Of a stretch of 24,000 nucleotides of DNA, positions 1-16,409 are shown in pieces. Below the pieces are notes generated by a model, which was not told where the DNA came from, ran no database searches, and saw only the letters and a list, made by a program, of their open reading frames with translations. Positions within the stretch are counted from its first letter, which is position 1; the number at the start of each line of letters is the position of its first letter. Origin of the DNA: an uncultured Propionibacteriaceae bacterium. Its GTDB lineage: Bacteria > Actinomycetota > Actinomycetes > Propionibacteriales > Propionibacteriaceae. The stretch covers positions 2,201 through 26,200 of the forward strand of contig CALKHV010000032.1 in NCBI GenBank assembly GCA_937988865.1, written 5' to 3'. A program made the translations under genes and the position numbers.

Positions 1-930
1 GCCTGGATCGGCACCGACGGCGCCGGGCACTTCGTGAAGATGGTGCACAACGGCATCGAGTACGCCGACATGCAGTTCATCGGCGAGGCGTACGAACTGC
101 TCAAGGGCGCCGGATTCTCGGCGGCCGAAGCCTCCGAGGTGTTCCAGACCTGGAACACCGGCGACCTCGACTCGTTCCTGATCGAGATCACGGCCGAGGT
201 CCTGGCCATGGTCGATCCGCGCACCGGTGCGCCGCTCATCGACGTCATCGTCGACGAGGCCGGCATGAAGGGTACGGGGACCTGGACCGTCCAGTCGGCC
301 CTGAACCTCGGGACGCCGGTCAACACCATCGCCGAGTCGGTCTTCGCGCGCGCACTGTCGGGCCACACCGAGCTTCGCGCCGCCGCGCAGGCGGCCCTGT
401 CGGGCCCCGACCGCACCGTGACGGTCGACGACCGCGACGCATTCGTCGAATCCATCCGGCAGGCGCTGTGGGCGTCCAAGGTCATCGCCTACGCGCAGGG
501 CCTGGACGAGATCCGCATGGCTGCTGCCGAGTACGGGTGGGAGATCGACGTGGCAAGCGTGGCGCGCATCTGGCGTGACGGCTGCATCATCCGTGCGAAG
601 CTGCTCGACCGCATCAGCAACGAGTACGCGGCCAACAACCTCGTCACGCTGCTGGAGGCCCCGTCCATCAGAGCTGGACTGGCGGACTCCCAGGACGGCT
701 GGCGCGAGGTCGTCGCAGTGGCGGCCCGGGCCGGCGTCCCGATCCCCGGATTCTCGGCGGCGCTCGCCTACTACGACATGGCGCGTGCCCCCAGGGTCAA
801 CGCAGCGCTCACCCAGGGCTTGCGGGACCAGTTCGGGTCACACACCTATCGCCGGATTGACGACGACGGCACCTGGCACATCCAGTGGTCAGGCGACCGC
901 TCCGAGGTAGCCTACGAGTCGACCCACTGA
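1..930 (+). CDS. gnd: 6-phosphogluconate dehydrogenase (decarboxylating), C-terminal ~310 codons; the 5' end lies upstream of the window
   Basis: Frame 1 is open from nt 1 (AWIGTDGAGHFVKMVHNGIEYADMQFIGEAYELLK...). This matches the conserved GHFVKMVHNGIEY core and the C-terminal domain of Gnd. Stop TGA at 928-930. GC-rich third codon positions. Confidence 0.93.
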   Translation, partial: AWIGTDGAGHFVKMVHNGIEYADMQFIGEAYELLKGAGFSAAEASEVFQTWNTGDLDSFLIEITAEVLAMVDPRTGAPLIDVIVDEAGMKGTGTWTVQSALNLGTPVNTIAESVFARALSGHTELRAAAQAALSGPDRTVTVDDRDAFVESIRQALWASKVIAYAQGLDEIRMAAAEYGWEIDVASVARIWRDGCIIRAKLLDRISNEYAANNLVTLLEAPSIRAGLADSQDGWREVVAVAARAGVPIPGFSAALAYYDMARAPRVNAALTQGLRDQFGSHTYRRIDDDGTWHIQWSGDRSEVAYESTH

Positions 931-964
931 CCCGACAGAACCACGTCATCCCGAGCAGTGGGCG

Positions 965-1810
965 TCAGCGCAGCCGGGTCAGCGTGACCTCGACGAACAT
1001 GTCGCAGGTCTCGCCCCCGACGAACAGGCCCCGCAGCGGCGACACGTCCGCGTAGTCGCGGCCCCGCCCCACCACGATGTGGTCGTCCCCGACGGTCCCC
1101 TCGTTGGTGGGGTCGAGGCCGCGCCAGCCGCCGTCCCAGTACTCCAGCCAGGCGTGCGACTGGCCCGAGGACGATTCGCCGGCTGCCTGCTCGGTGTCGG
1201 GCATGAGGTAGCCGGAGACGTACCGGGCCGGCACTCCCCCGCTGCGCAGGGCACCGATGAGCACGTGCGTGAGGTCCTGGCACACACCGGCGCCGGTGGC
1301 CCACGCGTCGCGGGCGCTCGAGTGCACATCGGTCACGCCGGGCAGGTACGTGACGCGGGACACCACGAGGTCGCGCGCCAGCAGGACGAAGTCACTGGGA
1401 CGCGCGGCCGCCGCGCGCAGGTCAGCAGCCATGGACGCCAATTCGTCGGCGGGGGTGACCAGGCGTCCGAGGTTGAGGTACTCGGCGTGCTCGCTCACGA
1501 CCTCGGGACGCGTGAACGCGTCCCAACCGACGTTGTCCCACGTCACTGGACGGTGGTCGATGATCACCTCGCTCGTCGAGACGAGGCGCAGGTGCTCGTG
1601 GCGCTCATGGAGTTCGAAGGCCGTGACGGCCGTGCCCCAGTAGTCGGTGAAGGTGTGCGTCCAGGCCGAGGGTGACACCTCGACACGGGAGTGGAGCACC
1701 TGCTGGTCGCTCGTGTTCATCGGGGTCATGCGGGCCTCGTTGTACGACGAGGACGCGCCCCCCCGGTAGCTGTAGCCGGTGCTGTGCACGACGCGGAGCG
1801 TGAGGCTCAC
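965..1810 (-). CDS. Transglutaminase-fold (papain-like Cys-His-Asp) protein with bacterial transglutaminase N-terminal domain; third gene of ATP-grasp module 1
   Basis: 281-aa ORF. Its GTG start overlaps the upstream stop (GTGA, 1807-1810). The N-terminus MSLTLRVVHSTGYSYRG fits the Bact_transglu_N pattern. The core carries Cys (GAGVCQDLTH), His (SHAWLEYW) and Asp (GLDPTN). Confidence 0.9.
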   Translation of the reverse strand: MSLTLRVVHSTGYSYRGGASSSYNEARMTPMNTSDQQVLHSRVEVSPSAWTHTFTDYWGTAVTAFELHERHEHLRLVSTSEVIIDHRPVTWDNVGWDAFTRPEVVSEHAEYLNLGRLVTPADELASMAADLRAAAARPSDFVLLARDLVVSRVTYLPGVTDVHSSARDAWATGAGVCQDLTHVLIGALRSGGVPARYVSGYLMPDTEQAAGESSSGQSHAWLEYWDGGWRGLDPTNEGTVGDDHIVVGRGRDYADVSPLRGLFVGGETCDMFVEVTLTRLR

Positions 1811-2730
1811 AGCGCTCCTCCCTTCCAGGTGGGTGACGCGGCACCCTCGAAGTAGCGCTCCGAGATGGCGGCGTCGAGGTCGACGCAGAGGTGCTGCAGC
1901 GCGGTCAGTCGCTCGGGCAGCGTCGACAACACCTCATCCATGCGCTGGTACTCCAGTTCGGCGCGGGCCTTGCCCAGCAGCCACACCGGCGTCCCCTCGG
2001 CCCTCGCACCCTCAACGCCCGGTTCGAGCGCGGTGAGGGCCTCCTCGACCGACCGCAGGGAGTGGACCACCGAGCCCGGGAACAACCCGTCCAGCAGCAG
2101 GAAGCCTGCGGCGTCGCGTCCGAGGGTCTCGGCGCCATAGGTGCGGCGATAGGCGTGGAGCGCACCCCTGGCGCGCAGCGCACTGGTCCACGCGCTGGGC
2201 CGGTTCGGCGTGCTCGCGGCGAGCATCATCGTTCTGGCCGTCATGTCGACCTGCTCCAGGCCCCGCCCCAACTCGAGGAAGAGCCACCCCTCGTCGTGGC
2301 TCATCGCGCTGTCGGCGGTGCCGTTGATGACCGCGCACCGTTCGCGAAGCAGGTTGAGCGCCGAACTCGGACGCATGAGCCGTAGCGAGGGGCCCGAACC
2401 TGCGTGCCAGGTGGTGTTGATGGCCTCCCACATCTCGGGGGGAACCGTCTCGCGGGCACGACGGGCTGCCTCGCGGGCACCTGCGATCGCCGACACCACC
2501 GAGGGGGACGCGAGGTCGTGCAGCAGGAGTTGGGCGATCTCGTCGCTCACCGAGTCCGAGGTGCTCGGGTAACCCATCACGCCCAGGAGGGTTTGGGCCG
2601 CGTCGTGCACGTCGACGGTCGGATCCTCCACCACGAGTTGCAGGTGCACGTCGAGGATGCGGCAGGTGCTCTCGGCGCGCTGGACGTAGCGTCCGATCCA
2701 GTACAGCGACTCGGCGATCCGGCTCAGCAT
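1807..2730 (-). CDS. Alpha-E domain protein (COG2307 type); second gene of module 1
   Basis: ATG at 2730 is preceded by GGAGGA (complement of 2737-2742) with a 6-nt spacer. MLSRIAESLYWIGRYVQRAE is the hallmark alpha-E N-terminus. The ORF-track start at 2898 adds an Ala/Gly/Pro-rich extension that lies inside the upstream gene and is not supported. Confidence 0.88.
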   Translation of the reverse strand: MLSRIAESLYWIGRYVQRAESTCRILDVHLQLVVEDPTVDVHDAAQTLLGVMGYPSTSDSVSDEIAQLLLHDLASPSVVSAIAGAREAARRARETVPPEMWEAINTTWHAGSGPSLRLMRPSSALNLLRERCAVINGTADSAMSHDEGWLFLELGRGLEQVDMTARTMMLAASTPNRPSAWTSALRARGALHAYRRTYGAETLGRDAAGFLLLDGLFPGSVVHSLRSVEEALTALEPGVEGARAEGTPVWLLGKARAELEYQRMDEVLSTLPERLTALQHLCVDLDAAISERYFEGAASPTWKGGAL

Positions 2731-4319
2731 GTCGAATCCTCCACTCCTGTCTGCCGCCGCGCCTGTTGCTGCTGCTGCGGCTGCTCGTGCGGTGCGAGGA
2801 TGGCCCGCACACCCTGTTGTCCCTGCGGCAGGGCCACGAAGCGGGCCGACACCGGTGGGGCCGGGGGCTGGACGTCCAGGTCGTCCGTGAGCACCCACGT
2901 GTCCTTCGACCCGCCGCCCTGGGAGGAGTTCACGATCAACTCACCTTCAGGGAGCGCGACCCGGGTCAGGCCGCCCGGCAGCACCCTCACCTCATCGCCG
3001 TTGTTGACGGCGAACGGACGCAGATCCACGTGCCTCGCTGCGAACGTGCCGTCGATCATCGTGGGCACGGTCGACAGCTGGACGACGGGTTGGGCGATCC
3101 AGCCGCGAGGGTCGTCGAGGATCCGCTGACGCAGCGCGTCCAGTTCGGTCCGGGTGGCCGCGGGACCGATGACGATTCCCTTGCCGCCCGAGCCATCCAC
3201 GGGTTTGACGACGAGTTCCGCCAGTCGATCGAGCACCTCTACCCGATGGTCCGGCTCCTCCAGACGCCAGGTGTCGACGCCGGGGAGGATCGGTTCCTCG
3301 GACAGGTAGTAGCGCACCAGGTCGGGCACGTAGGTGTAGACGAGCTTGTCGTCGGCCACTCCATTGCCGATGGCGTTCGCGATCGTGACGTTGTTGCGTC
3401 GCACCGCGTTCAACAGACCAGCGCTGCCCAACAGGGAGTCGCCGCGGAACTGGGTCGGGTCGAGGAACTCGTCGTCGACCCGTCGATAGATGACGTGCAC
3501 CGGCCACAGACCCTTCGTGGTGCGCACGGAGACGCGTCCGTTGCGGCACACGAGGTCGCGTCCCTCGACGAGTTCGACGCCCATCATCCGGGCCAGCAGG
3601 GCGTGCTCGAAGTAGGCGGAGTTGTGGACGCCGGGCGTCAGGACCACGATCGTCGGATCGCTGACACCGGGTGGCGCTGCGGCCGCCAGCGCCTCCCGCA
3701 ACATCAACGGGTAGTTCTGCACGGGCAGGATCTTGTGGCGATTGGCGACCTCGGGCAGCGCCGACGTGATCGCCCGGCGGTTGGTCATCACGTACGACAC
3801 ACCCGAGGGGACGCGGACGTTGTCCTCCAGGACGCGGAACGTGCCCTTGGCATCCCTGACGAGGTCGATGCCCGCCACGTGCACACGGACGCCGTTGGCC
3901 GGCTCGATCCCGGCGACCACCCGGTGGAAGTGGGGTGAACTGGTGACCACCTGCCGGGGCACCACCCCGTCGGCGAAGACCTCGCCCTGACCGTAGACGT
4001 CGGCCAGGAACCGCTCGAGCGCCCTGACTCGCTGGGCGACCCCCTGCTCGATGCGCGTCCACTCGGACGCCTTCAGGATGCGGGGCAGGATGTCGAGCGG
4101 GAACGGCGTCTCGAGACCCCCGATGTCGAAGGTGACACCCTGGTCGAAATACGTTCGCCGCAGGTATTCCGCCCTCGACCTCACCTCGTCGGCGGGCAAC
4201 CCGCGCAGGATCTCCTCCAGTTGGGCGTAGACCTCACGCACCTCACCGGACGCGGGGTCGACGAACATCTCGTCGAACGCGCCGGGTGCGGCGGCATAGT
4301 CGTCAAAGAGCGGGCTCAC
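2724..4319 (-). CDS. Circularly permuted type-2 ATP-grasp protein (COG2308 type), putative amide/peptide ligase; first gene of module 1
   Basis: 531-aa ORF with a GTG start at 4319. Family motifs present: RFLADVYG, VLEDNVRVPSGVSY, VVKPVDGSGGKGIVIG, LPGGLTRVA, NSSQGGGSKDTWVL. The stop overlaps the alpha-E start (ATGCTGA, 2724-2730). Confidence 0.9.
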   Translation of the reverse strand: MSPLFDDYAAAPGAFDEMFVDPASGEVREVYAQLEEILRGLPADEVRSRAEYLRRTYFDQGVTFDIGGLETPFPLDILPRILKASEWTRIEQGVAQRVRALERFLADVYGQGEVFADGVVPRQVVTSSPHFHRVVAGIEPANGVRVHVAGIDLVRDAKGTFRVLEDNVRVPSGVSYVMTNRRAITSALPEVANRHKILPVQNYPLMLREALAAAAPPGVSDPTIVVLTPGVHNSAYFEHALLARMMGVELVEGRDLVCRNGRVSVRTTKGLWPVHVIYRRVDDEFLDPTQFRGDSLLGSAGLLNAVRRNNVTIANAIGNGVADDKLVYTYVPDLVRYYLSEEPILPGVDTWRLEEPDHRVEVLDRLAELVVKPVDGSGGKGIVIGPAATRTELDALRQRILDDPRGWIAQPVVQLSTVPTMIDGTFAARHVDLRPFAVNNGDEVRVLPGGLTRVALPEGELIVNSSQGGGSKDTWVLTDDLDVQPPAPPVSARFVALPQGQQGVRAILAPHEQPQQQQQARRQTGVEDSTC

Positions 4320-4325
4320 ACTCGC

Positions 4326-4331
4326 ACATTA
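4326..4331 (-). promoter_or_regulatory. Candidate -10 hexamer TAATGT (TANNNT) 6 nt upstream of the GTG start at 4319; suggests a leaderless transcript for module 1
   Basis: The complement of 4326-4331 reads TAATGT. No Shine-Dalgarno sequence lies between it and the start codon. Spacing fits actinobacterial -10-to-TSS geometry. Confidence 0.35.
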
Positions 4332-4333
4332 GG

Positions 4334-4369
4334 CACGTCGTGTAACACACGTGTTTCGTCCACGAAACA
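4334..4369. promoter_or_regulatory. Cluster of overlapping dyad-symmetric elements (putative operator) between the two divergent ATP-grasp modules
   Basis: Four elements: CACGtCGTG (4334-4342); CGTGT-aac-ACACG (4339-4351); the perfect palindrome ACACGTGT (4347-4354); and the perfect inverted repeat TGTTTCG-tcca-CGAAACA (4352-4369). This is the locally least GC-rich stretch of the intergenic region. Confidence 0.45.
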
Positions 4370-4409
4370 GGGCTGAACTCGTGGGCGTCCCGGTGCCCGG
4401 GCTGCCGCG

Positions 4410-4415
4410 TATGCT
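4410..4415 (+). promoter_or_regulatory. Candidate -10 hexamer TATGCT 7 nt upstream of ATG 4423; suggests a leaderless start for module 2
   Basis: TATGCT matches TANNNT. No SD precedes any candidate start (4351 GTG, 4381 GTG, 4411 ATG, 4423 ATG). The same hexamer precedes marR. Confidence 0.3.
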
Positions 4416-4422
4416 GACCACG

Positions 4423-6912
4423 ATGGGCACAGACACCACGTCGCGGCCGGCATTCCCGCCCGACATCCAGCGCGCCGTCGACGAGTGGGGTCTCTCGGGC
4501 TCGCTGCGTCGACGCTCGACCATTCGCCGCTACGTCGAGGACGACGGCATCGTCGTCGGACGCCGGCCCTCAGGCGCGCCCCGCAGCCTTCAGGTCGATC
4601 CGCTCCCGGTGGTGCTCGACGCAGTCGAGTGGTCGGCCCTGGAAGCCGGCCTCGCGCAGCGCGCCCACCTGCTCGAACTCCTCCTGGCCGATGTCTACGG
4701 CCCCCGACACCTTCTGGAGCGCGGCACGATCCCCGCCGAACTCGTGCTCGGCCACCCGGGGTTCGTCCCCCAGGCCGACGGCATCCCGACGCGCGACGAA
4801 CTGGTCCTCACGGCTACCGACCTGGGCCGCGCGTCCGATGGCCGGTGGACGGTGCTCGGCGACCGGACGGAGGCCCCCACCGGTGCGGGCTACGCCATGG
4901 CTGTGCGTCGTGTCACGGCGAGGGCGCTCACGGCCACCCACCGATCAGCCGACCTGCGGCGACTGCGCGGCTTCTTCGACAGCTTGCGTGGCCGCCTGCT
5001 GGCGCTGGCCTCCGGCACGTCCGAGGTGTCGCGCGTCGTCCTGCTCGGTGAAGGTGGCGACGGAGAGTCAGCTTTCGACGACGCCTTCACCGCCATGCTC
5101 CTGGGCTTCCCCCTCGCCCGCGCGGACGACCTCGTCCTGGCGGACGGGCGTCTCTGGCTGCGCACCACCGCCGGACGCGAACCCCTCGACATCGTGGTGC
5201 GCCGCGTGGACGCTCGGGCCAGTGACCCGCTCGACCTCGACTCGCGCTCGTCCAACGGCGTCCCGGGGCTGGTGGAGGCCTCACGCCGGGGCATGGTGAC
5301 GGTCGTCAATCCCCTGGGCTCCGGCATCCTGGAGAATCCGGCACTCGGTGCCTTCTGGTCAGGGATCTCGCGCGACCTGCTCGACAGCGATCCCCTGATC
5401 GAGGCTCCGCAGACGTGGTGGTGCGGTGATCGCGCATCGTTGTCGCACGTGCTCGCCCACCTGCCCGAGTTGATGCTGTCACCCCTCGGCCCCACCAGGG
5501 AGCGTCCGAGGCTGCGGGGGTCAGAGCTGAGTGCGTCGCAACGCGATGTGCTCTCCAGGCGCATCGAGGCCGAACCCTGGGCCTGGTCCGGTCAGGAGGT
5601 CGTTCCTGCGTGGCTCACGCCGATCGTGACGTCCCGCGGACTGGTGGAGCGTCCGACAGTGGTGCGGACCTTCACCCTCGGCGGAGCCGGAAGCCCCGTC
5701 GTCATGCCCGGCGGGCTCGCCAGGGCTGCATCCGACGACCAGCGGGCGGGCGTGGGGACGCTCGAACAGTCCATTGCCAAGGACCTCTGGGTCCTGGGCT
5801 CGGCGGGGGTCAAGGAGGCCGTCGAGGAGTTCGCGTCGATCCGCGTCGCCAGCCCCTCGAGCCCTTCAACTCCCGATGAAGCGTCCGAACCCCGTCCCCG
5901 GGGGCTGGCGATCGCACTCTCGAACCGGTCGGCCGAGGACCTGTACTGGTTCGGACGTTACGCGGAACGGGCGGAGGCCACCGCGCGACTGCTGCTCGTG
6001 GCCGACGACCTCGTCGAAGACCACCTCAACCGCCCGGGAACCGCCGGCCACGAGGCCATGACCGTCGTGCTGGACGCGATCGACACCCTGACTGCCGTCC
6101 GCCGGGAGCGACTGTTGTCGACGAGTGACAACGGTCAACCGGATGCCGTCAGGGAACCCCTGAGCCACCTGCGCCGCCTCGTCTTCGACGCCGCCCGCCG
6201 CGGGACGATCCATCACGCGGTCAGTCGTGCCGGTCAGGCGGCGGGCGAGGTGCGCGACCTCCTGTCGTCCGACACCTGGATGGTCCTCAGCCGACTCGAG
6301 CGTCACCTCACCGACCCACCCCCCGACGAGGAGCGCCTTCAACCGGTTCTCCTGAGCGTGGTCGAGTCGCTCCTCGCCCTGGCCGGGATGAGCGCCGAGG
6401 GACTCGTGCGCGATGCCAGCTGGGCCTTCTTCGACGCAGGGCGCCGGATGGAACGCAGCCAGGAGACACTGCGGCTCTTGCGCGCGATGCTGGGGCAGGC
6501 CCGGCGTCCCAGAGTGGACGCGTTCGCCCTCGAGGCCACCCTCCGGACGACCGACAGCATCATTTCCCACCGTCGCCGGCTGGTCGACGGACGCGGACGA
6601 CGCCACGAACTCGAGATCGCCCTCGACCTGCTGCTGGTCGACCCCACCAACCCCCGCTCGGTCCTCTACCAGCTCACCCGACTGCAGTCCGACCTGGCGT
6701 ACGTGCCCGAGTCGTCACTGGGTGATGCCACGGCGTCACTCGTGACCCTCACGCGCTCGCTCGACCCGCGCCAACTCGCACTCGGCGAACGGGCGCGTCT
6801 GGTCGAGGCCCTGACCGCCGTCGAGAAGCGCCTCCGCGCCCTGTCCCAGCTCCTCGACAGCACCCACTTCACGCACCAGGTGCGGTCGCGCGTGGTGGTG
6901 GAAGGACTGTGA
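4423..6912 (+). CDS. Fusion protein: circularly permuted ATP-grasp-like domain + C-terminal alpha-E domain (module 2), joined by a Ser/Pro-rich linker
   Basis: The reading frame is open from 4351. The start is uncertain (4351/4381/4411/4423). I prefer 4423 because the palindromic operator occupies 4334-4369 and a TANNNT box lies at 4410-4415. The N-terminal ~480 aa are paralogous to the 531-aa ATP-grasp protein (LLADVYG, APTGAGYAMAVRR, VVRRVDA, MPGGLARAA, KDLWVL). The linker is ASPSSPSTPDEASEPRP. The C-terminal part, starting at AEDLYWFGRYAERAEATARLL, is paralogous to the alpha-E gene. Stop TGA at 6910-6912. Confidence 0.88.
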   Translation: MGTDTTSRPAFPPDIQRAVDEWGLSGSLRRRSTIRRYVEDDGIVVGRRPSGAPRSLQVDPLPVVLDAVEWSALEAGLAQRAHLLELLLADVYGPRHLLERGTIPAELVLGHPGFVPQADGIPTRDELVLTATDLGRASDGRWTVLGDRTEAPTGAGYAMAVRRVTARALTATHRSADLRRLRGFFDSLRGRLLALASGTSEVSRVVLLGEGGDGESAFDDAFTAMLLGFPLARADDLVLADGRLWLRTTAGREPLDIVVRRVDARASDPLDLDSRSSNGVPGLVEASRRGMVTVVNPLGSGILENPALGAFWSGISRDLLDSDPLIEAPQTWWCGDRASLSHVLAHLPELMLSPLGPTRERPRLRGSELSASQRDVLSRRIEAEPWAWSGQEVVPAWLTPIVTSRGLVERPTVVRTFTLGGAGSPVVMPGGLARAASDDQRAGVGTLEQSIAKDLWVLGSAGVKEAVEEFASIRVASPSSPSTPDEASEPRPRGLAIALSNRSAEDLYWFGRYAERAEATARLLLVADDLVEDHLNRPGTAGHEAMTVVLDAIDTLTAVRRERLLSTSDNGQPDAVREPLSHLRRLVFDAARRGTIHHAVSRAGQAAGEVRDLLSSDTWMVLSRLERHLTDPPPDEERLQPVLLSVVESLLALAGMSAEGLVRDASWAFFDAGRRMERSQETLRLLRAMLGQARRPRVDAFALEATLRTTDSIISHRRRLVDGRGRRHELEIALDLLLVDPTNPRSVLYQLTRLQSDLAYVPESSLGDATASLVTLTRSLDPRQLALGERARLVEALTAVEKRLRALSQLLDSTHFTHQVRSRVVVEGL

Positions 6913-7823
6913 GGGCTGCGTCCGAGAAGAACCACCAAACTCGTCGTTACAAGGTGAAACACCGCACCGACTACACCTATGACGAAGAGGTCACGGCCTC
7001 CTACGGCCGGGCTGTCCTGCGTCCACGCGACACTCCGACGCAGCGAGTCATCCGGCACCAGATCGAGGTGACGCCCACGCCCAACACACTCCTCGAGCAC
7101 GTCGACTTCTTCGGCAACTACAGCCACTACCTCGAGATCCACACTCCTCACCGGCAGCTCGACGTCACCAAGCACGCCGTCGTCAACGTGGCCACGCCCA
7201 TGACCGATCTGGCCCGCTTCGACCGCTGGACGGTCGGCGACGGTGCGGCCGCAGCGGCCGCGGCCCCCTACGACACCGCCCTGCGCGCCGCGTTCACCCT
7301 GCCCTCGGCGCTCGTCGACCAGGGTGACGCGGTCCGGCGATTCGCCGCCGAGGCCTTCCCGAGCGACGCCCCCCTCGGACGCGCACTCGACCACCTGGTG
7401 AGCTTCATCCACGCCGAGTTCCGCTACACCCCCGGCGCGACCACCGTCCACACGACACTGCCTGAACTCCTGGATGCACGGGCGGGCGTCTGCCAGGACT
7501 TCGCCCAGCTCGCCATCGGCTGCCTGCGCGCCCAGGGCTACGCAGCCCGCTACGTGAGTGGCTACCTCGAGACGCAGCCGCCGCCGGGCCAACCCAAACT
7601 CGAGGGCGCGGACGCCACCCACGCGTGGCTCGCCGTGATGCTCCCGGACGGGACGTGGCTCGATCTGGACCCCACGAACGACTGCGCGGCCGATTCCCGC
7701 TACGTCGTGACTGCCTGGGGACGCGACTACCGCGACGTGGCCCCCCTGAAAGGCGTGATCTACAGCGAGGGTGCGTCCAGTTCATTGAAAGTCTCGGTCG
7801 ACGTCACCCGACTCCCTGACTGA
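6909..7823 (+). CDS. Transglutaminase-fold protein with bacterial transglutaminase N-terminal domain (module 2 paralogue)
   Basis: The GTG start overlaps the upstream stop (GTGA, 6909-6912). RYKVKHRTDYTYDEEV fits the N-terminal domain pattern. Triad context: AGVCQDFAQLAIGCLRAQGYAARYVSGY, THAWLAV, LDLDPTN. Confidence 0.9.
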   Translation: MRAASEKNHQTRRYKVKHRTDYTYDEEVTASYGRAVLRPRDTPTQRVIRHQIEVTPTPNTLLEHVDFFGNYSHYLEIHTPHRQLDVTKHAVVNVATPMTDLARFDRWTVGDGAAAAAAAPYDTALRAAFTLPSALVDQGDAVRRFAAEAFPSDAPLGRALDHLVSFIHAEFRYTPGATTVHTTLPELLDARAGVCQDFAQLAIGCLRAQGYAARYVSGYLETQPPPGQPKLEGADATHAWLAVMLPDGTWLDLDPTNDCAADSRYVVTAWGRDYRDVAPLKGVIYSEGASSSLKVSVDVTRLPD

Positions 7824-7847
7824 TGCGTCTCATGGCACCATGGACGC

Positions 7848-8324
7848 ATGGAGCCCACCCTCGACCACGTCCTCGCCACGATCGACGCCCTGGTCGCATC
7901 CACCTGGCCCACCACCGAGGCCGAGCGCATCGCCTGGTTCACCGAGCACAACCTGCACCCCACCCGCGCGCTGGGTGACGACCCTGAATGGGGCACGGCC
8001 GTGCCCGGCTGGGGCGATGCGGCGATCACCTGGTCGAGCTTCGAGGACGAGTTCGTCGACGTCGGCTGGTTCCTGCACCCCGGCGCCGGCGAAGAGGTCC
8101 TCACGGCCGAGTTCGCGCAGCTCGCCACCGGGCTTGCCGAACGGTTCGGTGATCCGGTCGAGTACTCCGACCCCGACGAGCCGCTCGGCGGCGTGTGGCA
8201 GGACGGCGTCCATTCGATCCAGCTCTACGCCCACACCGAAGAGGGCGACTGCCTGCAGATCCACGTCGGCCTGACCGAACGTGAAGAGGCCCAGGCGATC
8301 GCGTCCGGGGAGTTCGGGGTCTGA
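7848..8324 (+). CDS. Hypothetical acidic, Trp-rich 158-aa protein; probably the last gene of the module-2 operon
   Basis: ATG lies 24 nt after the transglutaminase stop on the same strand. Third codon positions are strongly GC-rich in this frame. The overlapping alternative frame (7840..8274) gives Pro/Ser/Thr/Arg-rich nonsense. I recognise no family. Confidence 0.6.
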   Translation: MEPTLDHVLATIDALVASTWPTTEAERIAWFTEHNLHPTRALGDDPEWGTAVPGWGDAAITWSSFEDEFVDVGWFLHPGAGEEVLTAEFAQLATGLAERFGDPVEYSDPDEPLGGVWQDGVHSIQLYAHTEEGDCLQIHVGLTEREEAQAIASGEFGV

Positions 8325-8327
8325 GCT

Positions 8328-9191
8328 TCAGTCCACGATGAGCGGCTCCATGGCCGCTCGCGTCTCGTCGGGCAGCGCCATCGGACGTCCGCCGGGGTCG
8401 GCACACACCAGCACGGTCCTTGCTCGCGCCATGACCTTTCCACCGGCCAGCGGATCGGTGATCTCGCAGGCGATGACGGCCGACGAACTCCCCAGCCCCA
8501 CAGGTGCGGTCACGACGTCGTACGGCTCCAGCCTGTAGTCCATCTGGACGAGGTAGTCGACGTCCTGGCGGGCCACGAGCCACATGTACCGGGGTGCGTC
8601 CGAGGTCATGCCGAGTCGGGCCGTGGCCGGGTCGGCCTCGGTCGTCATGGCGATCCGGGCTTCCTGCACGTAGTCGAAGTAGCGGACGTTGTTGACATGG
8701 CCGTAGGAGTCGAGGTCGCTCCAGCGCACCTGCAGCGGGTGATGATGTCCGCGTCCTGACAGTGCCGGAGCCTCCAGCGGACGCATCGCCGGCAGGTCAC
8801 GCTGCACCGACATGAAGTGGTCGCGCTCCGACCGCGTCATGCGCCTCGGCGTCCCCGCGGTGAAGTCGAACGGGCACAGGATGGTCGTCGCACGGGCGCA
8901 CAACTCACCGTCGTGACGCAGCTCGTAACCGATGACGAACCGTGCCGCCCCGACCTCGGCCACCGCCAACTCGATCTCCATGGGCCGGTCGGAGTACGAG
9001 ATCGGACGCAGGTACTCGATCTGGTGGCCCACCACGACGACCCCACCCCCAAGCATGTGGTGGTTGGGGCCGTCCAGCAGGAATTGCGCGCGCGCCTCCT
9101 GCAGGTAGTCGACGTAGAGGGCGTTGTTGACGTGCCCCTGTGCGTCCATGTCGCCCCATCGGATCGGGGCGGTGAAGGTGTTCCTGGTCAC
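8328..9191 (-). CDS. Tandem (double) hotdog-fold acyl-CoA thioesterase, 4HBT/YbgC-like
   Basis: 287 aa with two internal repeats. Each repeat carries the 4HBT-type signature: RWGDMDAQGHVNNALYVDYLQEAR (aa 11-34) and RWSDLDSYGHVNNVRYFDYVQEAR (aa 156-179). The GTG start overlaps the fadD stop (GTGA, 9188-9191). Confidence 0.85.
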   Translation of the reverse strand: MTRNTFTAPIRWGDMDAQGHVNNALYVDYLQEARAQFLLDGPNHHMLGGGVVVVGHQIEYLRPISYSDRPMEIELAVAEVGAARFVIGYELRHDGELCARATTILCPFDFTAGTPRRMTRSERDHFMSVQRDLPAMRPLEAPALSGRGHHHPLQVRWSDLDSYGHVNNVRYFDYVQEARIAMTTEADPATARLGMTSDAPRYMWLVARQDVDYLVQMDYRLEPYDVVTAPVGLGSSSAVIACEITDPLAGGKVMARARTVLVCADPGGRPMALPDETRAAMEPLIVD

Positions 9192-11038
9192 TCGGACGCT
9201 TCGTCGTCGTACAGGGAGTCGACCGCGTCGGCGTAGGTCGCGGCGATGACGTTGCGACGCACCTTCATGTTGGGAGTCACCCCACCCTCATCGACGGTCA
9301 GCTCGTGGTCGAGGATGGCGAACCGCTTGACCGTCTCCCAGCGCTCGAGGTGGCTGTTGGCGCGGTCCATGAAACGTCCGATGGACGCGTGGATCTCGGG
9401 CAGCTGCGTCAGCTCCGCATAGCTGAGGTCTTTGTGGCCACGACGTTCGGCCCACTTCTCCAGGCTCACGGGGTCGAGCGTGACGAGGGCGACGATGTAC
9501 TTGCGTCCCTCGCCCAGTGCGACGGCCTGACTCACGTACGGGATGTTGGCCGAGATCGCCGATTCGACCTTCTGCGGGGCGACGTACTTGCCGCCCGAGG
9601 TCTTCATGAGGTCCTTCTTGCGGTCGGTGATCGTCAGGTAGCCGTCGGCGTCGAGGGACCCGATGTCGCCGGTGTGGAACCACCCGTCGGTGTAGGACTC
9701 GGCGTTCGCCTCGGGCGAGTTGTGGTAGCCGACTGTGATGGTCGGCCCCTTGAGGAGCAGTTCGCCGTCCTCGGCGATCTTCGCCTCGATGCCCGGAATG
9801 ACCGGTCCGACGGTGCCGAAGCGCGGCTTGGTCGGGACGTTGACGAAGGCGACGGCGGAGGTCTCGGTCATGCCGTACCCCTCCACGACGATGATCCCGG
9901 CCGAGTAGAACCACTCCTGAACCTGGCTCGACAACTTGGCCGAACCGGAGATGAAGAACTTGATGTTGCCGCCCATCTTCTCCTTGAGCTTGGAGAAGAC
10001 GATCTTGTCGGCGACCTTGTAGCGGGCGGCGAGGCTGCGGGGCATGGGTTGGCCGGCGAGGCGGTAGCTGCGGGACTCGCGTCCGACCGCGAACGCCCAA
10101 CGGGTGAGGCGACCCTTGATGCCGTCACGCGGAGCCGATGTCATCACGGCGTTGCGGACCTTCTCGAAGATGCGTGGCGCGCCACACATGAAGGTGGGGT
10201 GCACTTCTCCGAGGCCGGCCATGATGCGGTCCAGGCGTCCATCGACGGCGGTCGCGAAGCCGATGGCGATCTGGATCGAGACAAGGCACTTGCCGAAGAC
10301 GTGCGACAGCGGGAGCCACAGGTACTGCACGTCATCGAGTTCCAGGATGTCCAGCGCGTCGATGGCGACGCCCTCGTATGCCCAGGCCTCGTGGGTGAGT
10401 TCGACCCCCTTCGGACGTCCGGTGGTGCCCGAGGTGTAGATCAGGGTGCTGAGGTGGTCGCGCGTCGTTGCGTCGATGGCCTGCTCGACCGAGTCGGGAT
10501 GTTCCGCGAGGTGGGCGCGTCCGAGGGCCACGAACTCCGACCAGGTCAGGACGCGGGGATCAGGGTGATCACCCCTGCGGTCGTCGTCGATCAGGATGAT
10601 GTGGTGAATCTGGTCGTCGAGTTCGGACGCCGACTGCACCTTCGCCGCCTGAGCGCTGTTCTCGGCGACGAAGACGACGGACGCCGAGTCCTGCAGGATG
10701 TACACGACGTCGTCGACCTGGGTGTTGGGGTACACCGTGGTGGTGGCCCCGCCTGCGCAGGCGATCCCGAGGTCGGCGAGGATCCACTCCATCCTCGTGC
10801 TGGACGCGATGGCCACCCGTTGCTCGAGGGCCAGCCCGAGCGCGACGAAGCCGGCGGCGCACTCGTGGACCGCGGTCTGGGCCTGCGTCCACGTCATGGG
10901 CGTCCACGTGTTGGGGCCGTCGACGCGGTCGGGCACGAGGTAGGCAGTGGCGTGGGGAGTCAGGTGGACGCGACGTCGGAGCATGTCTCCGATGTTGTTG
11001 GCGCTCTGCGCCAGGATCTCAGCCTGTGTGGTGGCCAT
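9188..11038 (-). CDS. fadD: Long-chain fatty-acid--CoA ligase (AMP-forming acyl-CoA synthetase, FadD15-like size class)
   Basis: ATG at 11038 (MATTQAEIL...) is preceded by GAGGAG. AMP-binding motifs are present: LIYTSGTTGRPKGV, EGYGMTE, TGDIG, DRKKDLMKTSGGKYVAPQ. The ORF-track start at 11065 is 9 codons further upstream and lacks an SD. Confidence 0.9.
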   Translation of the reverse strand: MATTQAEILAQSANNIGDMLRRRVHLTPHATAYLVPDRVDGPNTWTPMTWTQAQTAVHECAAGFVALGLALEQRVAIASSTRMEWILADLGIACAGGATTTVYPNTQVDDVVYILQDSASVVFVAENSAQAAKVQSASELDDQIHHIILIDDDRRGDHPDPRVLTWSEFVALGRAHLAEHPDSVEQAIDATTRDHLSTLIYTSGTTGRPKGVELTHEAWAYEGVAIDALDILELDDVQYLWLPLSHVFGKCLVSIQIAIGFATAVDGRLDRIMAGLGEVHPTFMCGAPRIFEKVRNAVMTSAPRDGIKGRLTRWAFAVGRESRSYRLAGQPMPRSLAARYKVADKIVFSKLKEKMGGNIKFFISGSAKLSSQVQEWFYSAGIIVVEGYGMTETSAVAFVNVPTKPRFGTVGPVIPGIEAKIAEDGELLLKGPTITVGYHNSPEANAESYTDGWFHTGDIGSLDADGYLTITDRKKDLMKTSGGKYVAPQKVESAISANIPYVSQAVALGEGRKYIVALVTLDPVSLEKWAERRGHKDLSYAELTQLPEIHASIGRFMDRANSHLERWETVKRFAILDHELTVDEGGVTPNMKVRRNVIAATYADAVDSLYDDEASE

Positions 11039-11174
11039 GGGGGTGCTCCTCTTGGTCGATTGCACAGTCTATCGGTGACGGGCGTCCGAGCCTGTGGATG
11101 AACCGGCCAAAGGGTGGCACGCCGACTGGTCGGGAACTGACACGAGGGCCCGCAAATCCAATAATGGCGGACGT

Positions 11175-11189: not shown

Positions 11190-11690
11190 ATGGCCACGAC
11201 CTCTCTGCCCGTATTCCAGCCCGGTGATCCCGCGACCGAATCGACGGACGTGCCGTGGTTGTCTGACGAGCAGCAAAGGGTATGGCGCGCCTGGCTCCTC
11301 GGCGTGGCGCGGATCGACGACTACCTCGACCGCGACCTCCGCGGCCGCGGCCTCGACATGGGTGAGTACGAGATCCTCGTGTGCCTGTCTGAGGCTCCTG
11401 CGCGGAGCATGCGCATGTCTGAGCTCGCCGATCTCGTGCACCAGTCGCGTTCACGCCTGACCCACACGATCACGCGCATGGAGCGCGACGGCTACATCGC
11501 CCGGTGCTGCGCGCCCGATGATGGGCGCGGCGTCAATGCGAGTCTCACCGATGACGGGTTCGCCCTGCTCGAAGATGCAGCGCCCAGTCACGTCCGCGCT
11601 GTGCGCCGCATCTTTGTGGACGCGGTCGACCCGCGCGATTTCGCCGCCATCGGACGCGCCATGGAGGCCGTCCTCGCGGTGGCAGACTGA
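11190..11690 (+). CDS. MarR family transcriptional regulator
   Basis: 166 aa with a typical MarR winged-helix core (EYEILVCLSEAPARSMRMSELADLVHQSRSRLTHTITRMERDGYIAR...DGRGVNASLTDDG). It is divergent from fadD and lies 4 nt upstream of the next gene. Confidence 0.88.
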   Translation: MATTSLPVFQPGDPATESTDVPWLSDEQQRVWRAWLLGVARIDDYLDRDLRGRGLDMGEYEILVCLSEAPARSMRMSELADLVHQSRSRLTHTITRMERDGYIARCCAPDDGRGVNASLTDDGFALLEDAAPSHVRAVRRIFVDAVDPRDFAAIGRAMEAVLAVAD

Positions 11691-11694
11691 TCGG

Positions 11695-14499
11695 GTGGAC
11701 CCGCTCGAGAGCTTCCTGACCAGTCTGGATGACGCCTCGTGCGTCGATACGTCCTCCCTCGCCAAGGCGCTCTACTCGACGGATGCGTCGCTCTACCGGG
11801 TCGTGCCCCAGGTGGTCGCACGTCCCCGGACGCGCGAGGAACTCATCGTCGTGGCCCGCGCGGCGCTCGCGGCCGGGCTTCCGGTCACCACCCGTGGGGC
11901 CGGGACAAGTTGCGCGGGCAACGCAGTGGGCACCGGACTCGTCATCGACGTGGGACGCCACCTCACCTCCATCCTCGCTCTTGACGCGGACGCCCGCACC
12001 GCGACCGTCGAGCCGGGCGTCGTGCAGGCGTCCCTGCAGGCCGCAGCGAAGCCGTTCGGGCTGCGTTTCGGACCCGATCCCTCGACCCACACCCGATGCA
12101 CCATCGGGGGGATGATCGGCAACAACGCGTGCGGTCCCCGCGCCCTGGGCTACGGACGCACCTCCGACAATGTGATCGCCCTCGAGATCCTGACCGGAAC
12201 CGGTGAGCTCGTGACGCTGGGGGGCGCAGACCTCGCGTCCCCCCTGCCTGCCCTGCGTGACCTCGTCGGCGCCAACCTGGGGACCATCCGCACCGGCTTC
12301 GGACGCTTCGGACGCCAGGTGTCGGGCTACTCGATGGAGCACCTGCTGCCCGAGCGCGGGTTCGACGTCGCCCGCTTCTTCGCGGGCACCGAGGGGACGC
12401 TGGGCATCATCGTCCAGGCCACGGTCCGCCTCGTCGCCGACGCCCCGATCGCGCTGATGGTCGCGCTGGGGTACCCGACGATGGCCGACGCGGCCGACGC
12501 CATGCCTGTGATCCTTCCCTTCCGCCCCACCGCCGTCGAGGGCATGGACCGGCGCATCGTCGACGTGGTGGCGCGACGGCGCGGGGAGTCGTCCGTGCCA
12601 CCACTCCCCCGCGGCGACGGCTGGGTGTTCGTCGAGGTCGTCGGTGACGATCCCGATGAGGTGCGTGGACGCGCGGACGCGATGCTCGCTGCGTCCGGGG
12701 CCCTGGAGGGTTGGGTGGTGGACGATCCCGATCGCGCGAAGGTGCTGTGGAAGATCCGCGAGGACGGCGCCGGCCTCGCCGGTGTCAGCCTCGAGAACCC
12801 CGCTTATCCGGGCTGGGAGGATGCTGCTGTTCCCCCCGAGAGGCTCGGGGCCTACCTTCGCGAGTTCGACGCGTTGCTCGACCGGTACGGCCTGCAGGGG
12901 CTTCCTTACGGACATTTCGGCGACGGTTGCGTCCACTGCAGGATCGACTTCCCGCTCGAGCGCGCCGGCGGTACGAGCACCTATCGAGCCTTCGTCGAGG
13001 ACGCAGCCGCTCTCGTGGCGAGCCACGGCGGTTCGATGTCGGGCGAGCACGGCGATGGACGGGCACGCTCGGCACTCCTCCCCGCGATGTACTCCCCGGC
13101 CGCCCTGTCACTGTTCGGGCAGGTCAAGTCGCTGTTCGACCCGTCCAACCTCCTGAATCCGGGCGTTCTCGTCGATCCACGACCGGTGGACGCCGACGTC
13201 CGCGTGGCCGCCACCATCGGATCGCCCCTGCGCACCAGCCATCCCGAGTTCGTGCGCGAGGTGCACCAGTGTTCGGGTGTCGGCAAGTGCCTCGCCGACT
13301 CGACCTCCGGTGGCGGAGTGATGTGTCCCAGCTTCCAGGCGACGCGGGACGAGAAGGACTCGACCCGCGGACGCGCGCGCGTCCTGCAGGAGATGGTGAA
13401 CGGCTCGCTCATCACCCAGGGATGGCGCTCCCCCGAGGTGCGCGAGGCCCTCGACCTCTGCCTGTCGTGCAAGGGCTGCTCACGTGACTGCCCGACCGGG
13501 GTCGACATGGCCGCCTACAAGTCGCGCGTCCTCTACGAGAGCCTGAAGGGTCGCGTACGTCCGGCGTCCCATTACGCCATGGGTTGGCTGCCACGCTGGG
13601 GACGCATGGTCGCGTCCGTGCCGGGGCTCGGCGCCGTGGCCAATCTGGGGACGCAGACACCCGGCCTGAAGCACGCCATCCGCTGGGCGGCCGGGGTCGA
13701 CCAGCGACGTCCGATGCCGAAGTTCAGACCGTTCGGTTCGGCCGCCCGTGACTACCGTCGCGGCGCGGACGCCGAGGTGGAGGTCGACGGGACGCGTCCG
13801 CCGGTCGCGATCTGGGTCGACTCGTTCACGCACGCCTTCGAGGGCGCCCAACTCCCGGCGCTGGTGTGGGCCCTGGCCGACGGCGGGTTCGAGCCCTTCG
13901 TCATCGAGGACACGGCGTGCTGTGGTCTCACCTGGATCACCACCGGCCAACTCGACGGTGCGCGAAGGCAACTCCAGGGTGCTGTGGAGGTTCTCGGCCC
14001 GATCGCCGAGGCGGGTATCCCGATCGTCGGCATGGAACCCAGTTGTCTGGCGGTGTGGCGCAGTGACGCCGCCGACCTGCTCCCGGACGAACCACGGGTC
14101 GCCACGATCGCCTCGGCCATCCGCACCCTGGCAGAACTTCTGGGCACGGTCGAGGAGTGGGACGCGCCCGACCTGACCGGACACACGATCATCGCCCAAC
14201 CCCATTGCCACCATGCGTCCGTGCTGGGATGGGCGGCCGACGCTGCCCTGTTGGCGCGCACGGGCGCTGAGGTCATCACACTCGGAGGGTGTTGCGGTCT
14301 CGCCGGGAACTTCGGGGTCGAGCGCGGGCACTACGAAGTGAGCGTCAAAGTGGCCGAGCACGACCTCCTGCCGGCCCTGCACGCCCACCCGGACGCGATC
14401 GTGCTGGCGGACGGATTCAGCTGCCGCAAGCAGGTCTCAGACCTCGAGGCCCGCGATTCGATGACGCTCGCCCAACTCCTGGCCGCCCACGGACGCTGA
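11695..14499 (+). CDS. FAD-binding oxidase fused to a 4Fe-4S dicluster and two CCG (cysteine-rich) domains; YdiJ / GlcD-GlcF fusion type 2-hydroxyacid dehydrogenase
   Basis: GTG at 11695 is the first start after the marR stop; the ORF-track start at 11518 would overlap marR by about 170 nt. N-terminal FAD_binding_4-like region (VTTRGAGTSCAGNAVG). Fe-S motifs: CSGVGKCLADSTSGGGVMCPS and CLSCKGCSRDCPTGVDM. Two CCG motifs: TACCGLTW and GGCCGLAGNFG. 934 aa. Confidence 0.85.
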   Translation: MDPLESFLTSLDDASCVDTSSLAKALYSTDASLYRVVPQVVARPRTREELIVVARAALAAGLPVTTRGAGTSCAGNAVGTGLVIDVGRHLTSILALDADARTATVEPGVVQASLQAAAKPFGLRFGPDPSTHTRCTIGGMIGNNACGPRALGYGRTSDNVIALEILTGTGELVTLGGADLASPLPALRDLVGANLGTIRTGFGRFGRQVSGYSMEHLLPERGFDVARFFAGTEGTLGIIVQATVRLVADAPIALMVALGYPTMADAADAMPVILPFRPTAVEGMDRRIVDVVARRRGESSVPPLPRGDGWVFVEVVGDDPDEVRGRADAMLAASGALEGWVVDDPDRAKVLWKIREDGAGLAGVSLENPAYPGWEDAAVPPERLGAYLREFDALLDRYGLQGLPYGHFGDGCVHCRIDFPLERAGGTSTYRAFVEDAAALVASHGGSMSGEHGDGRARSALLPAMYSPAALSLFGQVKSLFDPSNLLNPGVLVDPRPVDADVRVAATIGSPLRTSHPEFVREVHQCSGVGKCLADSTSGGGVMCPSFQATRDEKDSTRGRARVLQEMVNGSLITQGWRSPEVREALDLCLSCKGCSRDCPTGVDMAAYKSRVLYESLKGRVRPASHYAMGWLPRWGRMVASVPGLGAVANLGTQTPGLKHAIRWAAGVDQRRPMPKFRPFGSAARDYRRGADAEVEVDGTRPPVAIWVDSFTHAFEGAQLPALVWALADGGFEPFVIEDTACCGLTWITTGQLDGARRQLQGAVEVLGPIAEAGIPIVGMEPSCLAVWRSDAADLLPDEPRVATIASAIRTLAELLGTVEEWDAPDLTGHTIIAQPHCHHASVLGWAADAALLARTGAEVITLGGCCGLAGNFGVERGHYEVSVKVAEHDLLPALHAHPDAIVLADGFSCRKQVSDLEARDSMTLAQLLAAHGR

Positions 14500-15680: not shown

Positions 15681-16409
15681 CTACCGAACCCGGCGCACTG
15701 AAGACTGGAGGCTGAGGTCGTTCCAGCGTCCCGGGTCGTCGAGCGTCGCCATGCCCACCTCGACGCCACCCCGACCCACGGACGCGACGCTGACGAGCAG
15801 CGACAGCGTCGGGTAGCCGTGGACGCGGTTGTCGCGGATGATGGCGCGATCATCAAGGGGACCCACCCCGGTGGACGCCGCCAGGACCGCCAGCCAGGCA
15901 TCCCACCACCGGCCATCCGGGCCGGGGGTGGTGGGGGCGGACGCGAAGGCGTCGAGCCAGGCCGCGACGCGCGCAGTCGCCGGGTCGTCCACGTCGTCGT
16001 GCGCGATCATGTGCGTCCCGGGGGCCAGGTCGACGACCCGTGGGGCGCCGCCCTCCCATGACGTGACGCGGACGCCGTCGGCGGTGACCTGCACGAGGTT
16101 GAAACCCAGTGTGGTCAGCGGATCAGGAAGGGCCCGCCCGGCGAGGGCGTCCAGGACGAGGGAACCGCGTGAGGTCACATCAGGCCCTTCAGCGCCACCG
16201 GCGCGGTTGAGCAGCACTGCCAGATTCGAGTCGTCGACGGCGAGCCAGGCGCCACCCGCGAGCTCGTCCAGAACCCCGCGGACCGCCGGCCGATCCGGCC
16301 ACCAGGCGCCCAACGAACGCCACGGACGCTGCGGGTCCTCGTCGCGTACGGCCAACACCCTGACGGGGCCGGCGCCCGGCTCCGGGACGCGGATCACGAC
16401 GGTGCACAT
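15681..16409 (-). CDS. NRDE / TANGO2-family protein (DUF833)
   Basis: 242 aa. N-terminal Met-Cys (MCTVVIRV...). Degenerate NRDE motif (LAVRDED). GGAWLAV and TSRGSLV motifs in the family-typical order. Confidence 0.75.
   Translation of the reverse strand: MCTVVIRVPEPGAGPVRVLAVRDEDPQRPWRSLGAWWPDRPAVRGVLDELAGGAWLAVDDSNLAVLLNRAGGAEGPDVTSRGSLVLDALAGRALPDPLTTLGFNLVQVTADGVRVTSWEGGAPRVVDLAPGTHMIAHDDVDDPATARVAAWLDAFASAPTTPGPDGRWWDAWLAVLAASTGVGPLDDRAIIRDNRVHGYPTLSLLVSVASVGRGGVEVGMATLDDPGRWNDLSLQSSVRRVR

Follow-up and report, generated by a model that had tools for sequence, protein, structure and literature searches.

We describe here a locus at which two paralogous gene modules, each encoding a circularly permuted (CP) ATP-grasp ligase, an Alpha-E domain and a transglutaminase-fold protein, lie head-to-head, and we propose that together they form an amide ligase/hydrolase system induced by nitrogen limitation, in which the second module, with its ligase and Alpha-E domains fused, probably depends on the stand-alone ligase of the first. 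Taken as a whole, we give this proposal about an even chance of being correct. The locus lies within a stretch of 24,000 nucleotides from an uncultured Propionibacteriaceae bacterium (contig CALKHV010000032.1 of assembly GCA_937988865.1; hereafter ‘the window’, whose numbering is used throughout unless another locus is named). The closest named relatives of this organism are Propioniciclava and other Propionibacteriaceae, and its DNA is uniformly GC-rich (0.63-0.71 across the window).

The first, or ‘split’, module is encoded on the minus strand by AG1 (2724..4319), a stand-alone CP-ATP-grasp ligase of 531 amino acids (aa; Pfam CP_ATPgrasp_2, PF14403, E=2.9e-158; CP_ATPgrasp_1, PF04174, E=1.3e-144), AE1 (1807..2730), a stand-alone Alpha-E protein of 307 aa (PF04168, E=4e-71, over its full length), and TG1 (965..1810), a transglutaminase-fold Cys-His-Asp protein of 281 aa (Bact_transglu_N, PF08379, 1.9e-19; Transglut_core, PF01841, 1.4e-17). 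The second, or ‘fused’, module is on the plus strand and comprises a single 829-aa polypeptide carrying both CP-ATP-grasp and Alpha-E domains (4423..6912; CP_ATPgrasp_2 6.8e-110, Alpha-E 5.3e-55), followed by a second transglutaminase-fold Cys-His-Asp protein, TG2 (6909..7823; 304 aa; Bact_transglu_N 1.8e-24, Transglut_core 3.9e-17). An earlier note, made from the letters of the window, had called these five genes and their domains, and the Pfam profile search bears it out; the overlaps that it described can be read directly in the DNA, as ATGCTGA between AG1 and AE1 (2730..2724), GTGA between AE1 and TG1 (1810..1807) and GTGA between the fused gene and TG2 (6909..6912). The split module has each part of the trio known as COG2308/COG2307/COG1305, with a CP-ATP-grasp gene, an Alpha-E gene downstream of it and a triad-bearing transglutaminase as the third gene; the fused module has the core composition of what we call ‘type-2’ operons, in which ATP-grasp and Alpha-E share one protein of ~800-890 aa and a transglutaminase-fold gene follows.

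Corresponding proteins of the two modules are 29% identical for the ATP-grasp domains (E=1e-50), 26% for Alpha-E (E=5e-13) and 34% for TG1 and TG2 (E=5e-38); divergence of this depth marks them as ancient paralogues with no recent duplication behind them. This agrees with the same note, which had seen paralogy in shared peptides (all of which are present) and had argued against redundant copies. Both TG1 and TG2 retain the GVCQD, HAWL and LDPTN motifs that supply Cys, His and Asp, and the stretch around these motifs aligns with a solved transglutaminase-like chain (PDB 3ISR). AE1 carries the GRY-ER motif, with W11, G13, R14, Y15 and R18 invariant in the Alpha-E alignment; its AlphaFold2 model (pLDDT 88) consists of helices only, and Foldseek found no structural match for it in the PDB. 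AG1 is closely matched by PDB 3N6X (E=9e-149), a betaproteobacterial structural-genomics entry without assigned function that was deposited under the title ‘putative glutathionylspermidine synthase’, and its homologues in Propionibacteriales and Micrococcales are 67-77% identical. The C-terminus of AG1 (2724-2880) is a low-complexity, Gln-rich tail (HEQPQQQQQARRQTGVEDSTC) that lies outside the region alignable with 3N6X and is variable among relatives. Homologues of the fused protein numbered 1602 at E<=1e-10 among 8000 candidates scored, and its own sequence is also present in the metagenome-assembled genome GCA_035904065.1 and on contigs from activated-sludge and other metagenomes.

Between the modules lies a spacer that, on the basis of clade spacers aligned by eye, looks like two separate, back-to-back leaderless promoters. 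For the split module, a predicted -10 hexamer, TAATGT (4326..4331, minus strand), stands 6 nt from the GTG start of AG1, and the same geometry (start codon, 6-7 nt, TAnnnT) recurs in 7/7 clade loci and 40/50 related split modules. For the fused module, a predicted -10 hexamer, TATGCT (4410..4415, plus strand), stands 7 nt from ATG 4423, and all clade relatives have TA(g/a/c)nCT 7-9 nt before the ATG. Two alternative starts lie further upstream, namely GTG 4351, which gives the longest open reading frame (ORF; 853 aa, and the span 4351..6912 on which Pfam was run), and GTG 4381, used in database calls (843 aa); because of this promoter geometry and of the N-terminal alignment with a 73%-identical relative, ATG 4423 is the likely true start, so that the fused gene begins 103 nt from the split module, in keeping with the boundaries of 4320-4422 given in the note. 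An Rfam scan of 800-8500 returned no RNA family, and hence neither riboswitch nor leader, in agreement with leaderless starts; a sigma-70 consensus scan of the spacer likewise found nothing, as expected for actinobacterial promoters built on a -10 element only. A terminator-like hairpin at 4339-4351 falls within the box region described below, with no gene end after it.

Upstream of the split promoter, in place of a -35 element, is a direct repeat that resembles the binding sites of GlnR, the OmpR-family nitrogen regulator of actinobacteria. In this box, CGAAAC-ACGTGT-GTTACA (4341..4358, minus strand), 10 nt separate the proximal half-site from the -10 hexamer downstream, and the same spacing is seen in 7/7 clade loci and in 25/28 related loci with a strict box. 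Published GlnR boxes read gTnAc-n6-GaAAc in S. coelicolor and t/gTAAC-n6-Gc/aAAC in M. smegmatis, the latter also given as Gn2AC-n6-GnAACA with a critical AC-n9-AC, and the box here follows this consensus, AC-n9-AC included, at or replacing the -35 of a weak promoter. Scored with a position weight matrix (PWM) built from 52 distinct M. smegmatis GlnR sites defined by chromatin immunoprecipitation sequencing (ChIP-seq) and MEME (Additional file 8 of PMC3662644), it reaches 13.4 bits, higher than 20 of those 52 real sites (range 2.0-19.8, median 14.6), and the boxes of the clade reach 12.4-16.3 bits, against a background of 5.5e-5 matches of at least 12 bits per position in 2.3 Mb of DNA. Its placement matches that seen by cryo-EM in the GlnR transcription-activation complex, where GlnR sites lie around the -35 element with the proximal site just downstream (PMC10235972).

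Related promoters were sampled through 50 AG1 genes, each with a clean start preceded by at least 150 nt of sequence; an upstream match of at least 10 bits is present for 43 of them (about 2% expected), and 38 of these matches fall between -38 and -40 relative to the start codon. The consensus of related split promoters is cGAAACacc.ccGcAACa-n9-tAg..T-n6-ATG, and in the 2.3 Mb the strict 16-mer precedes AG1-type genes in 45/53 occurrences. The named genome of Arsenicicoccus piscis has the same architecture of box and promoter. Within the clade the conserved element is GAAAC-n6-G(A/T/C)(A/T)AC(A), placed exactly 10 nt before the -10 hexamer of AG1, and the window box is the sole exact match to this pattern in the 24 kb.

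The note had pointed instead to a palindrome, and from this to a single control region shared by both modules. The palindrome is indeed there, as an exact 8+2+8 inverted repeat on both strands (TGTTTCGT-cc-ACGAAACA, 4352..4369), and it constitutes a second GlnR-type site (14.4 bits on the minus strand; 13.3 bits on the plus strand, reading toward the fused gene); the three top PWM matches of the window all fall at 4341-4369, being the direct-repeat box and the palindrome on both strands. As a conserved control element it does not hold up, for it is absent from relatives and adds, in the window, one more half-site, the third, to the same face of the helix; what is conserved is the direct repeat. 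Nor does a shared control region survive the comparison, since the spacer holds two promoters and the box is fixed with respect to the split promoter only, and it is also found before stand-alone split modules with no fused neighbour. One further PWM match in the window, of 11.0 bits at 10139-10156 (minus strand), is inside an AMP-binding gene and is probably due to chance.

A box of this type at the head of the fused operon itself is seen in other Actinobacteria, where 5/30 fused-type operons, all DUF2126-containing or stand-alone, have a PWM match upstream of their first gene (0.6-2% background): two in Nocardioides (L007, at 6446, 15.7 bits; L080, at 6626, 13.2 bits, -40), one in an uncultured actinomycete (L073, at 6450, 13.4 bits) and those in Rhodococcus (L053/L055, at 9745), all scoring 10-16 bits. 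Upstream of AG1 in the super-operons of other phyla, discussed below, no GlnR-type box was found.

That the operon might respond to nitrogen is made more plausible by its homologues. In P. putida the homologous operon is among the genes most strongly induced under nitrogen limitation, in an NtrC-dependent manner (PMC3235984, PMC5666114); a B. cenocepacia cluster of DUF404/407, DUF403, transglutaminase-like and large transglutaminase-like genes is sigma-54/NtrC-dependent and responds to nitrogen limitation (PMC5491218); and in Bradyrhizobium a CP_ATPgrasp_1 gene is listed with a sigma-54 promoter upstream. We propose that the split module is an ordinary, vertically inherited actinobacterial operon, transcribed without a leader, at which the GAAAC-n6-GnnACA repeat stands in for the -35, and that GlnR, bound there, would switch it on when nitrogen is depleted. 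Such induction would parallel the NtrC- and sigma-54-dependent induction of the Pseudomonas and Burkholderia homologous operons, and would point to convergent recruitment, an unrelated regulator having brought the same operon into the nitrogen-limitation regulon. The fused module would be driven by its own leaderless, -10-only promoter.

Several points weigh against this assignment. Binding of GlnR is a prediction from sequence; a tblastn search with AmtB, GlnA and GlnB recovered none of them in the actinobacterial loci examined, and hence gave no same-lineage set of GlnR targets for comparison. The box keeps a fixed distance to the split promoter, but its spacing to the fused one ranges in relatives from about 16 to 58 nt, so that co-regulation of the fused module is no more than possible. 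The mycobacterial counterparts Rv2409c-Rv2411c and Rv2566-Rv2567 do not appear in the main text of the M. tuberculosis GlnR paper, nor is there a transglutaminase annotation in the tables that list GlnR regulon genes for M. smegmatis, where orthologues cannot be identified by gene number; since the operon did not turn up when the GlnR ChIP-seq and regulon tables of the two species were searched for it, the box may be restricted to Propionibacteriales, Micrococcales and relatives. We found no published report of a GlnR-type box at this operon.

Other OmpR-family regulators possibly recognise similar boxes too, and a reference cited in PMC10704036 reports that Streptomyces MtrA binds GlnR boxes. 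A direct repeat with 11-nt periodicity at -35 is generic for OmpR/PhoB-type activators, and it might accordingly be the operator of MtrA, PhoP or a clade-specific member of that family, answering to a signal other than nitrogen limitation; the mycobacterial lists just mentioned would suit such a reading. In three split promoters (L144, L146, L155) the GAAAC/GCAAC box is replaced by GTTCAC-n5-GTTCAC direct repeats that resemble the PHO boxes of PhoP, which hints at a regulator swap or at interplay of GlnR and PhoP. We nevertheless think a different regulator unlikely, given that cGAAACa-n4-cGCAACA is the M. smegmatis GlnR consensus down to its AC-n9-AC, that the box scores like real M. smegmatis ChIP-seq sites, and that nitrogen is the signal to expect, the homologous operon being linked to its limitation in three proteobacteria.

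We turn now to the pairing of the modules, which was followed in three samples: the loci whose fused proteins are nearest to that of the window (52-73% identity, ‘the clade’); a census centred on fused genes, with one genome per species, 80 loci from many phyla and flanks of 10 kb; and a census centred on AG1 in its 80 closest metagenomic relatives (58-73% identity). Within the window’s narrow Propionibacteriaceae clade the head-to-head pair is present in 8/9 loci, with different flanking genes every time (those compared include L085, L087/L088 from Propioniciclava sp., L089, L090, L091 and L092); the remaining locus, L086, has a fused module with no adjacent split module. Outside it the layout is absent from all 80 fused-centred loci, nearly all of which have a TG2-type gene after the fused gene, and more distant Propionibacteriales (Micropruina, Propionicimonas, Nocardioides) show no such pair. 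Around AG1, the order AG1-AE1-TG1 was found in all 80 loci wherever the contig was long enough, with a fused gene beside it in one only (L093, the closest relative) and none within 7 kb in the other 79. The head-to-head layout is, then, conserved yet restricted to a narrow clade.

Linkage in any orientation is another matter. Among the 51 fused-centred loci with at least 20 kb of sequence, 17, from many phyla, have an AG1-type ligase and its Alpha-E gene within 10 kb of the fused gene, far above chance for roughly single-copy genes; the orientation in these is always co-directional or convergent and never divergent, and ten loci have a five-gene ‘super-operon’ of AG1, AE1, a transglutaminase-DUF2126 gene, the fused gene and TG2. 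Linkage is thus a recurrent feature across phyla, whereas the divergent arrangement (0/80 and 1/80 in the two censuses) is peculiar to the clade. The idea, put forward from the window alone, that both modules work as one system is in part upheld by this non-random linkage and by the loss of a ligase residue in the clade (see below); its other half, a shared palindromic control, is not.

The same data can be read differently. The modules may be independent paralogous systems with different substrates, brought together by rearrangement or joint transfer, of which only the split one is regulated by nitrogen while the fused one is separately controlled. Most Actinobacteria keep the modules apart, as seen in the 79/80 ligase-centred loci, in the Propionibacteriales relatives L005-L012, where no AG1 lies within 10 kb of the fused gene, and in Nigerium massiliense, where the modules are on different contigs; in addition, the box geometry is fixed toward the split promoter only, the fused gene owns its -10 element, and L086 carries a fused module alone. 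Mobile-element genes also surround the pair in two relatives, with a Transposase_mut gene and a tandem run of three phage-integrase genes (248-4445) in L091 and a DDE_3 transposase downstream (13102-13548) in L092, which suggests that the pair can move as a unit. Set against this are the retention of the pair in eight of nine clade loci even though the genes around it have changed entirely, its recurrence in other orientations in a third of the genomes counted, from unrelated phyla, and the coincidence of the DUF2126 and Lys/Arg losses with the linked clade; we regard independence as possible but on balance improbable. In L092, TG1 (4506-5350) is broken into two ORFs, one with the Bact_transglu_N part and one with the Transglut_core part, probably through a frameshift or pseudogenisation.

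Evidence that bears more directly on cooperation comes from the fused ligase itself. In classical ATP-grasp enzymes, a Lys/Arg residue and a Gly-rich loop hold the phosphates of ATP. AG1 has an intact KPVDGSGGKG motif and, like 3N6X, keeps ELVVKPVDGSGGKG; in the fused protein the corresponding motif is degenerate, reading LMLSPLGPTRER where LVVKPVDGSGGK would be expected. The Gly-rich loop is found in no fused-type protein of any phylum, and what sets the window’s clade apart is the Lys/Arg of the ‘LV(I/V)KP’ strand, which is kept in 70/75 (93%) of other fused proteins and in only 1/9 of the clade; here the position is occupied by Ser, Ala or, once, Arg, with Ser in the window (LMLSPL). A second loss goes with it. 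A DUF2126 gene, whose product of about 1100-1250 aa combines Bact_transglu_N, Transglut_core and DUF2126 (a ‘putative amidoligase’), lies upstream of the fused gene in 42/80 genomes and at none of the clade loci, the window included, by tblastn of a DUF2126 query against the DNA around the loci; a copy may still be present elsewhere in the genome. The clade that lost the Lys/Arg is therefore the one without an adjacent DUF2126 gene, and it is also the one in which, in eight of nine cases, the fused module sits beside a split module. With these three features coinciding, the most economical reading, which we hold with moderate confidence, is a fused ligase domain that in this clade is non-catalytic or altered and leans on AG1.

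Some caution is called for on this point as well. A catalytic role for the lost Lys is drawn by analogy from ATP-grasp enzymes in general, and the fused family, widely conserved as it is, has no Gly-rich loop in any of its members, so that it may bind ATP in another mode. L086, moreover, has a Lys-less fused module with no split module next to it, which either weakens strict dependence on AG1 or means that its AG1 sits elsewhere in the genome.

Synthesising these findings, we propose that the fused protein would act as a non-catalytic or altered ligase scaffold, working with or depending on active AG1; that the bond formed by the ligase would be an amide or isopeptide, on a substrate that may be a peptide, a protein or an amine, and that the Cys-His-Asp hydrolases would cleave or transfer it; and that the purpose would be the scavenging or recycling of nitrogen. 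The logic is a familiar one, for glutathionylspermidine synthetase/amidase and Pup ligase/depupylase both pair an ATP-dependent amide ligase with a hydrolase of the same type of bond, and the hydrolase of the glutathionylspermidine enzyme is a papain-like Cys amidase. These are analogies, and Alpha-E has no counterpart there.

A related possibility, which we think doubtful and a shade more so than independence of the modules, is protein tagging or degradation in the sense of Iyer and Aravind, whereby the ligase adds a peptide or amino-acid tag that the transglutaminase-fold proteins remove or process, and the two modules are writer/eraser sets for two tags or two classes of target. A ligase coupled to a Cys-hydrolase recalls pupylation (PafA/Dop), induction on nitrogen starvation would suit the recycling of amino acids, and in proteobacteria the split trio is associated with the proteasome-like Anbu. 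In the window, however, neither its ORFs nor the gene calls of locus L001 include an Anbu or other proteasome-family gene, and the high conservation of AG1 across phyla would fit a small, universal metabolite substrate equally well. In Yersinia, where the AG1-type ligase does hydrolyse ATP, no interaction among the proteins of the operon and no peptidase activity of Anbu were detected (PMC6376114). More speculative still, and in our view very unlikely, is that in the clade the two modules have merged into an obligate hybrid machine, in which a dead fused scaffold and its own Cys-hydrolase are serviced by active, GlnR-induced AG1, the whole placing an amide or isopeptide mark on proteins or peptides and removing it again for nitrogen recycling under starvation, as an actinobacterial counterpart of the Anbu system parallel to pupylation.

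The gene family (COG2308/2307/1305, the ‘Anbu operon’ set, the Rv2411c and Rv2567 types) is already known and uncharacterised, as the note had said. We found no established substrate or phenotype for the trio in the literature save for one paper that ascribes to Rv2569c a nonspecific ‘serine protease’ activity, insensitive to Cys-protease inhibitors, which we do not accept as the defining function given its poor fit to a Cys-His-Asp fold; Rv2411c and Rv2567 were negative when tested as GABA-trehalose synthetase. The divergent, DUF2126-less and Lys-less configuration, and the GlnR box with its leaderless promoter, are new variants and new leads.

Set beside its known relatives, the locus shares much and differs in specific ways. 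The Anbu operons of Pseudomonas, Yersinia and cyanobacteria have the same first three genes in the same order as the split module, but carry Anbu, have no head-to-head fused module and are under NtrC/sigma-54, in contrast to the predicted GlnR-type control of a leaderless sigma-A promoter here. The B. cenocepacia cluster (I35_5080-5083; BCAM1233-1236) shares the CP-ATP-grasp, Alpha-E and transglutaminase-like genes, but is co-directional, lists a large transglutaminase protein in place of the fused ATP-grasp/Alpha-E and is under a non-homologous regulator. Type-2 operons, of the kind of M. tuberculosis Rv2566-Rv2567...Rv2569c, likewise have a fused ATP-grasp and Alpha-E gene followed by an overlapping transglutaminase-fold gene; in the window there is no DUF2126 gene directly upstream and no KP-strand Lys/Arg, and there is a divergent split partner. 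The super-operons (for instance L015 and L018 in Acidimicrobiia, L027 in Pseudonocardiaceae, L074 and L078 in Poribacteria, L067 in Verrucomicrobia) hold the same two ATP-grasp, two Alpha-E and two transglutaminase-fold domains, but are co-directional (convergent in other genomes), have their first transglutaminase fused to DUF2126 and have no GlnR-type box upstream. GlnR-activated promoters such as those of amtB and glnA have the same Gn2AC-n6-GnAACA box, with sites that flank or replace the -35, and a single site can serve divergent genes; the classical ones have four sites, as against one conserved, putative two-site box here (three half-sites in the window), and an operon of the window’s type is not in the published mycobacterial regulon lists.

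Beyond the five genes, a small acidic ORF of 158 aa (ORF158; 7848..8324, plus strand), called as a gene in public assemblies, starts 25 nt 3' of TG2 and is a possible member of the operon. It has no Pfam match, and is kept only in the window organism and its 73% relative L085; in other clade members the position is taken by a third, Transglut_core-only gene (for instance 10122-10946 in L087), of which ORF158 is not a remnant, there being no similarity. PADLOC found no defence-system match for any of the six proteins, ORF158 among them, and NCBIfam no family over its cut-off. The flanks are of a housekeeping kind (gnd, a thioesterase/acyl-CoA-ligase pair, MarR, an FAD/Fe-S oxidase, CoaBC and an Opp transporter). 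Among them, a MarR-family regulator gene (11190-11690, plus strand) lies upstream of a gene for a 934-993-aa FAD-oxidase/4Fe-4S protein and diverges from an AMP-binding, acyl-CoA-ligase-like gene (8328-11065, minus strand), which in turn overlaps a double hot-dog thioesterase gene; further on, a TANGO2/NRDE-family gene (15681-16409, minus strand) is beside an AI-2E-family transporter gene, opposite coaBC.

Finally, the COG2308/2307/1305 trio is among the most widespread conserved bacterial neighbourhoods without a known substrate, more than 15 years after its description. The predicted GlnR-type box would tell when the actinobacterial operon is on, and would tie it to the nitrogen-starvation induction seen in proteobacteria through a non-homologous regulator; given GlnR control as predicted, such convergent regulon membership would be strong evidence for a role in the response to nitrogen limitation. 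The clade, in turn, offers a natural variant, a fused module minus its DUF2126 neighbour, minus an ATP-grasp residue and locked to a split module, that provides a genetic handle on whether the two module types cooperate. Should either prediction fail, these would merely be two known, uncharacterised operons that are neighbours by chance. The locus thus leaves the function of the family unrevealed, yet makes a long-standing question experimentally approachable.

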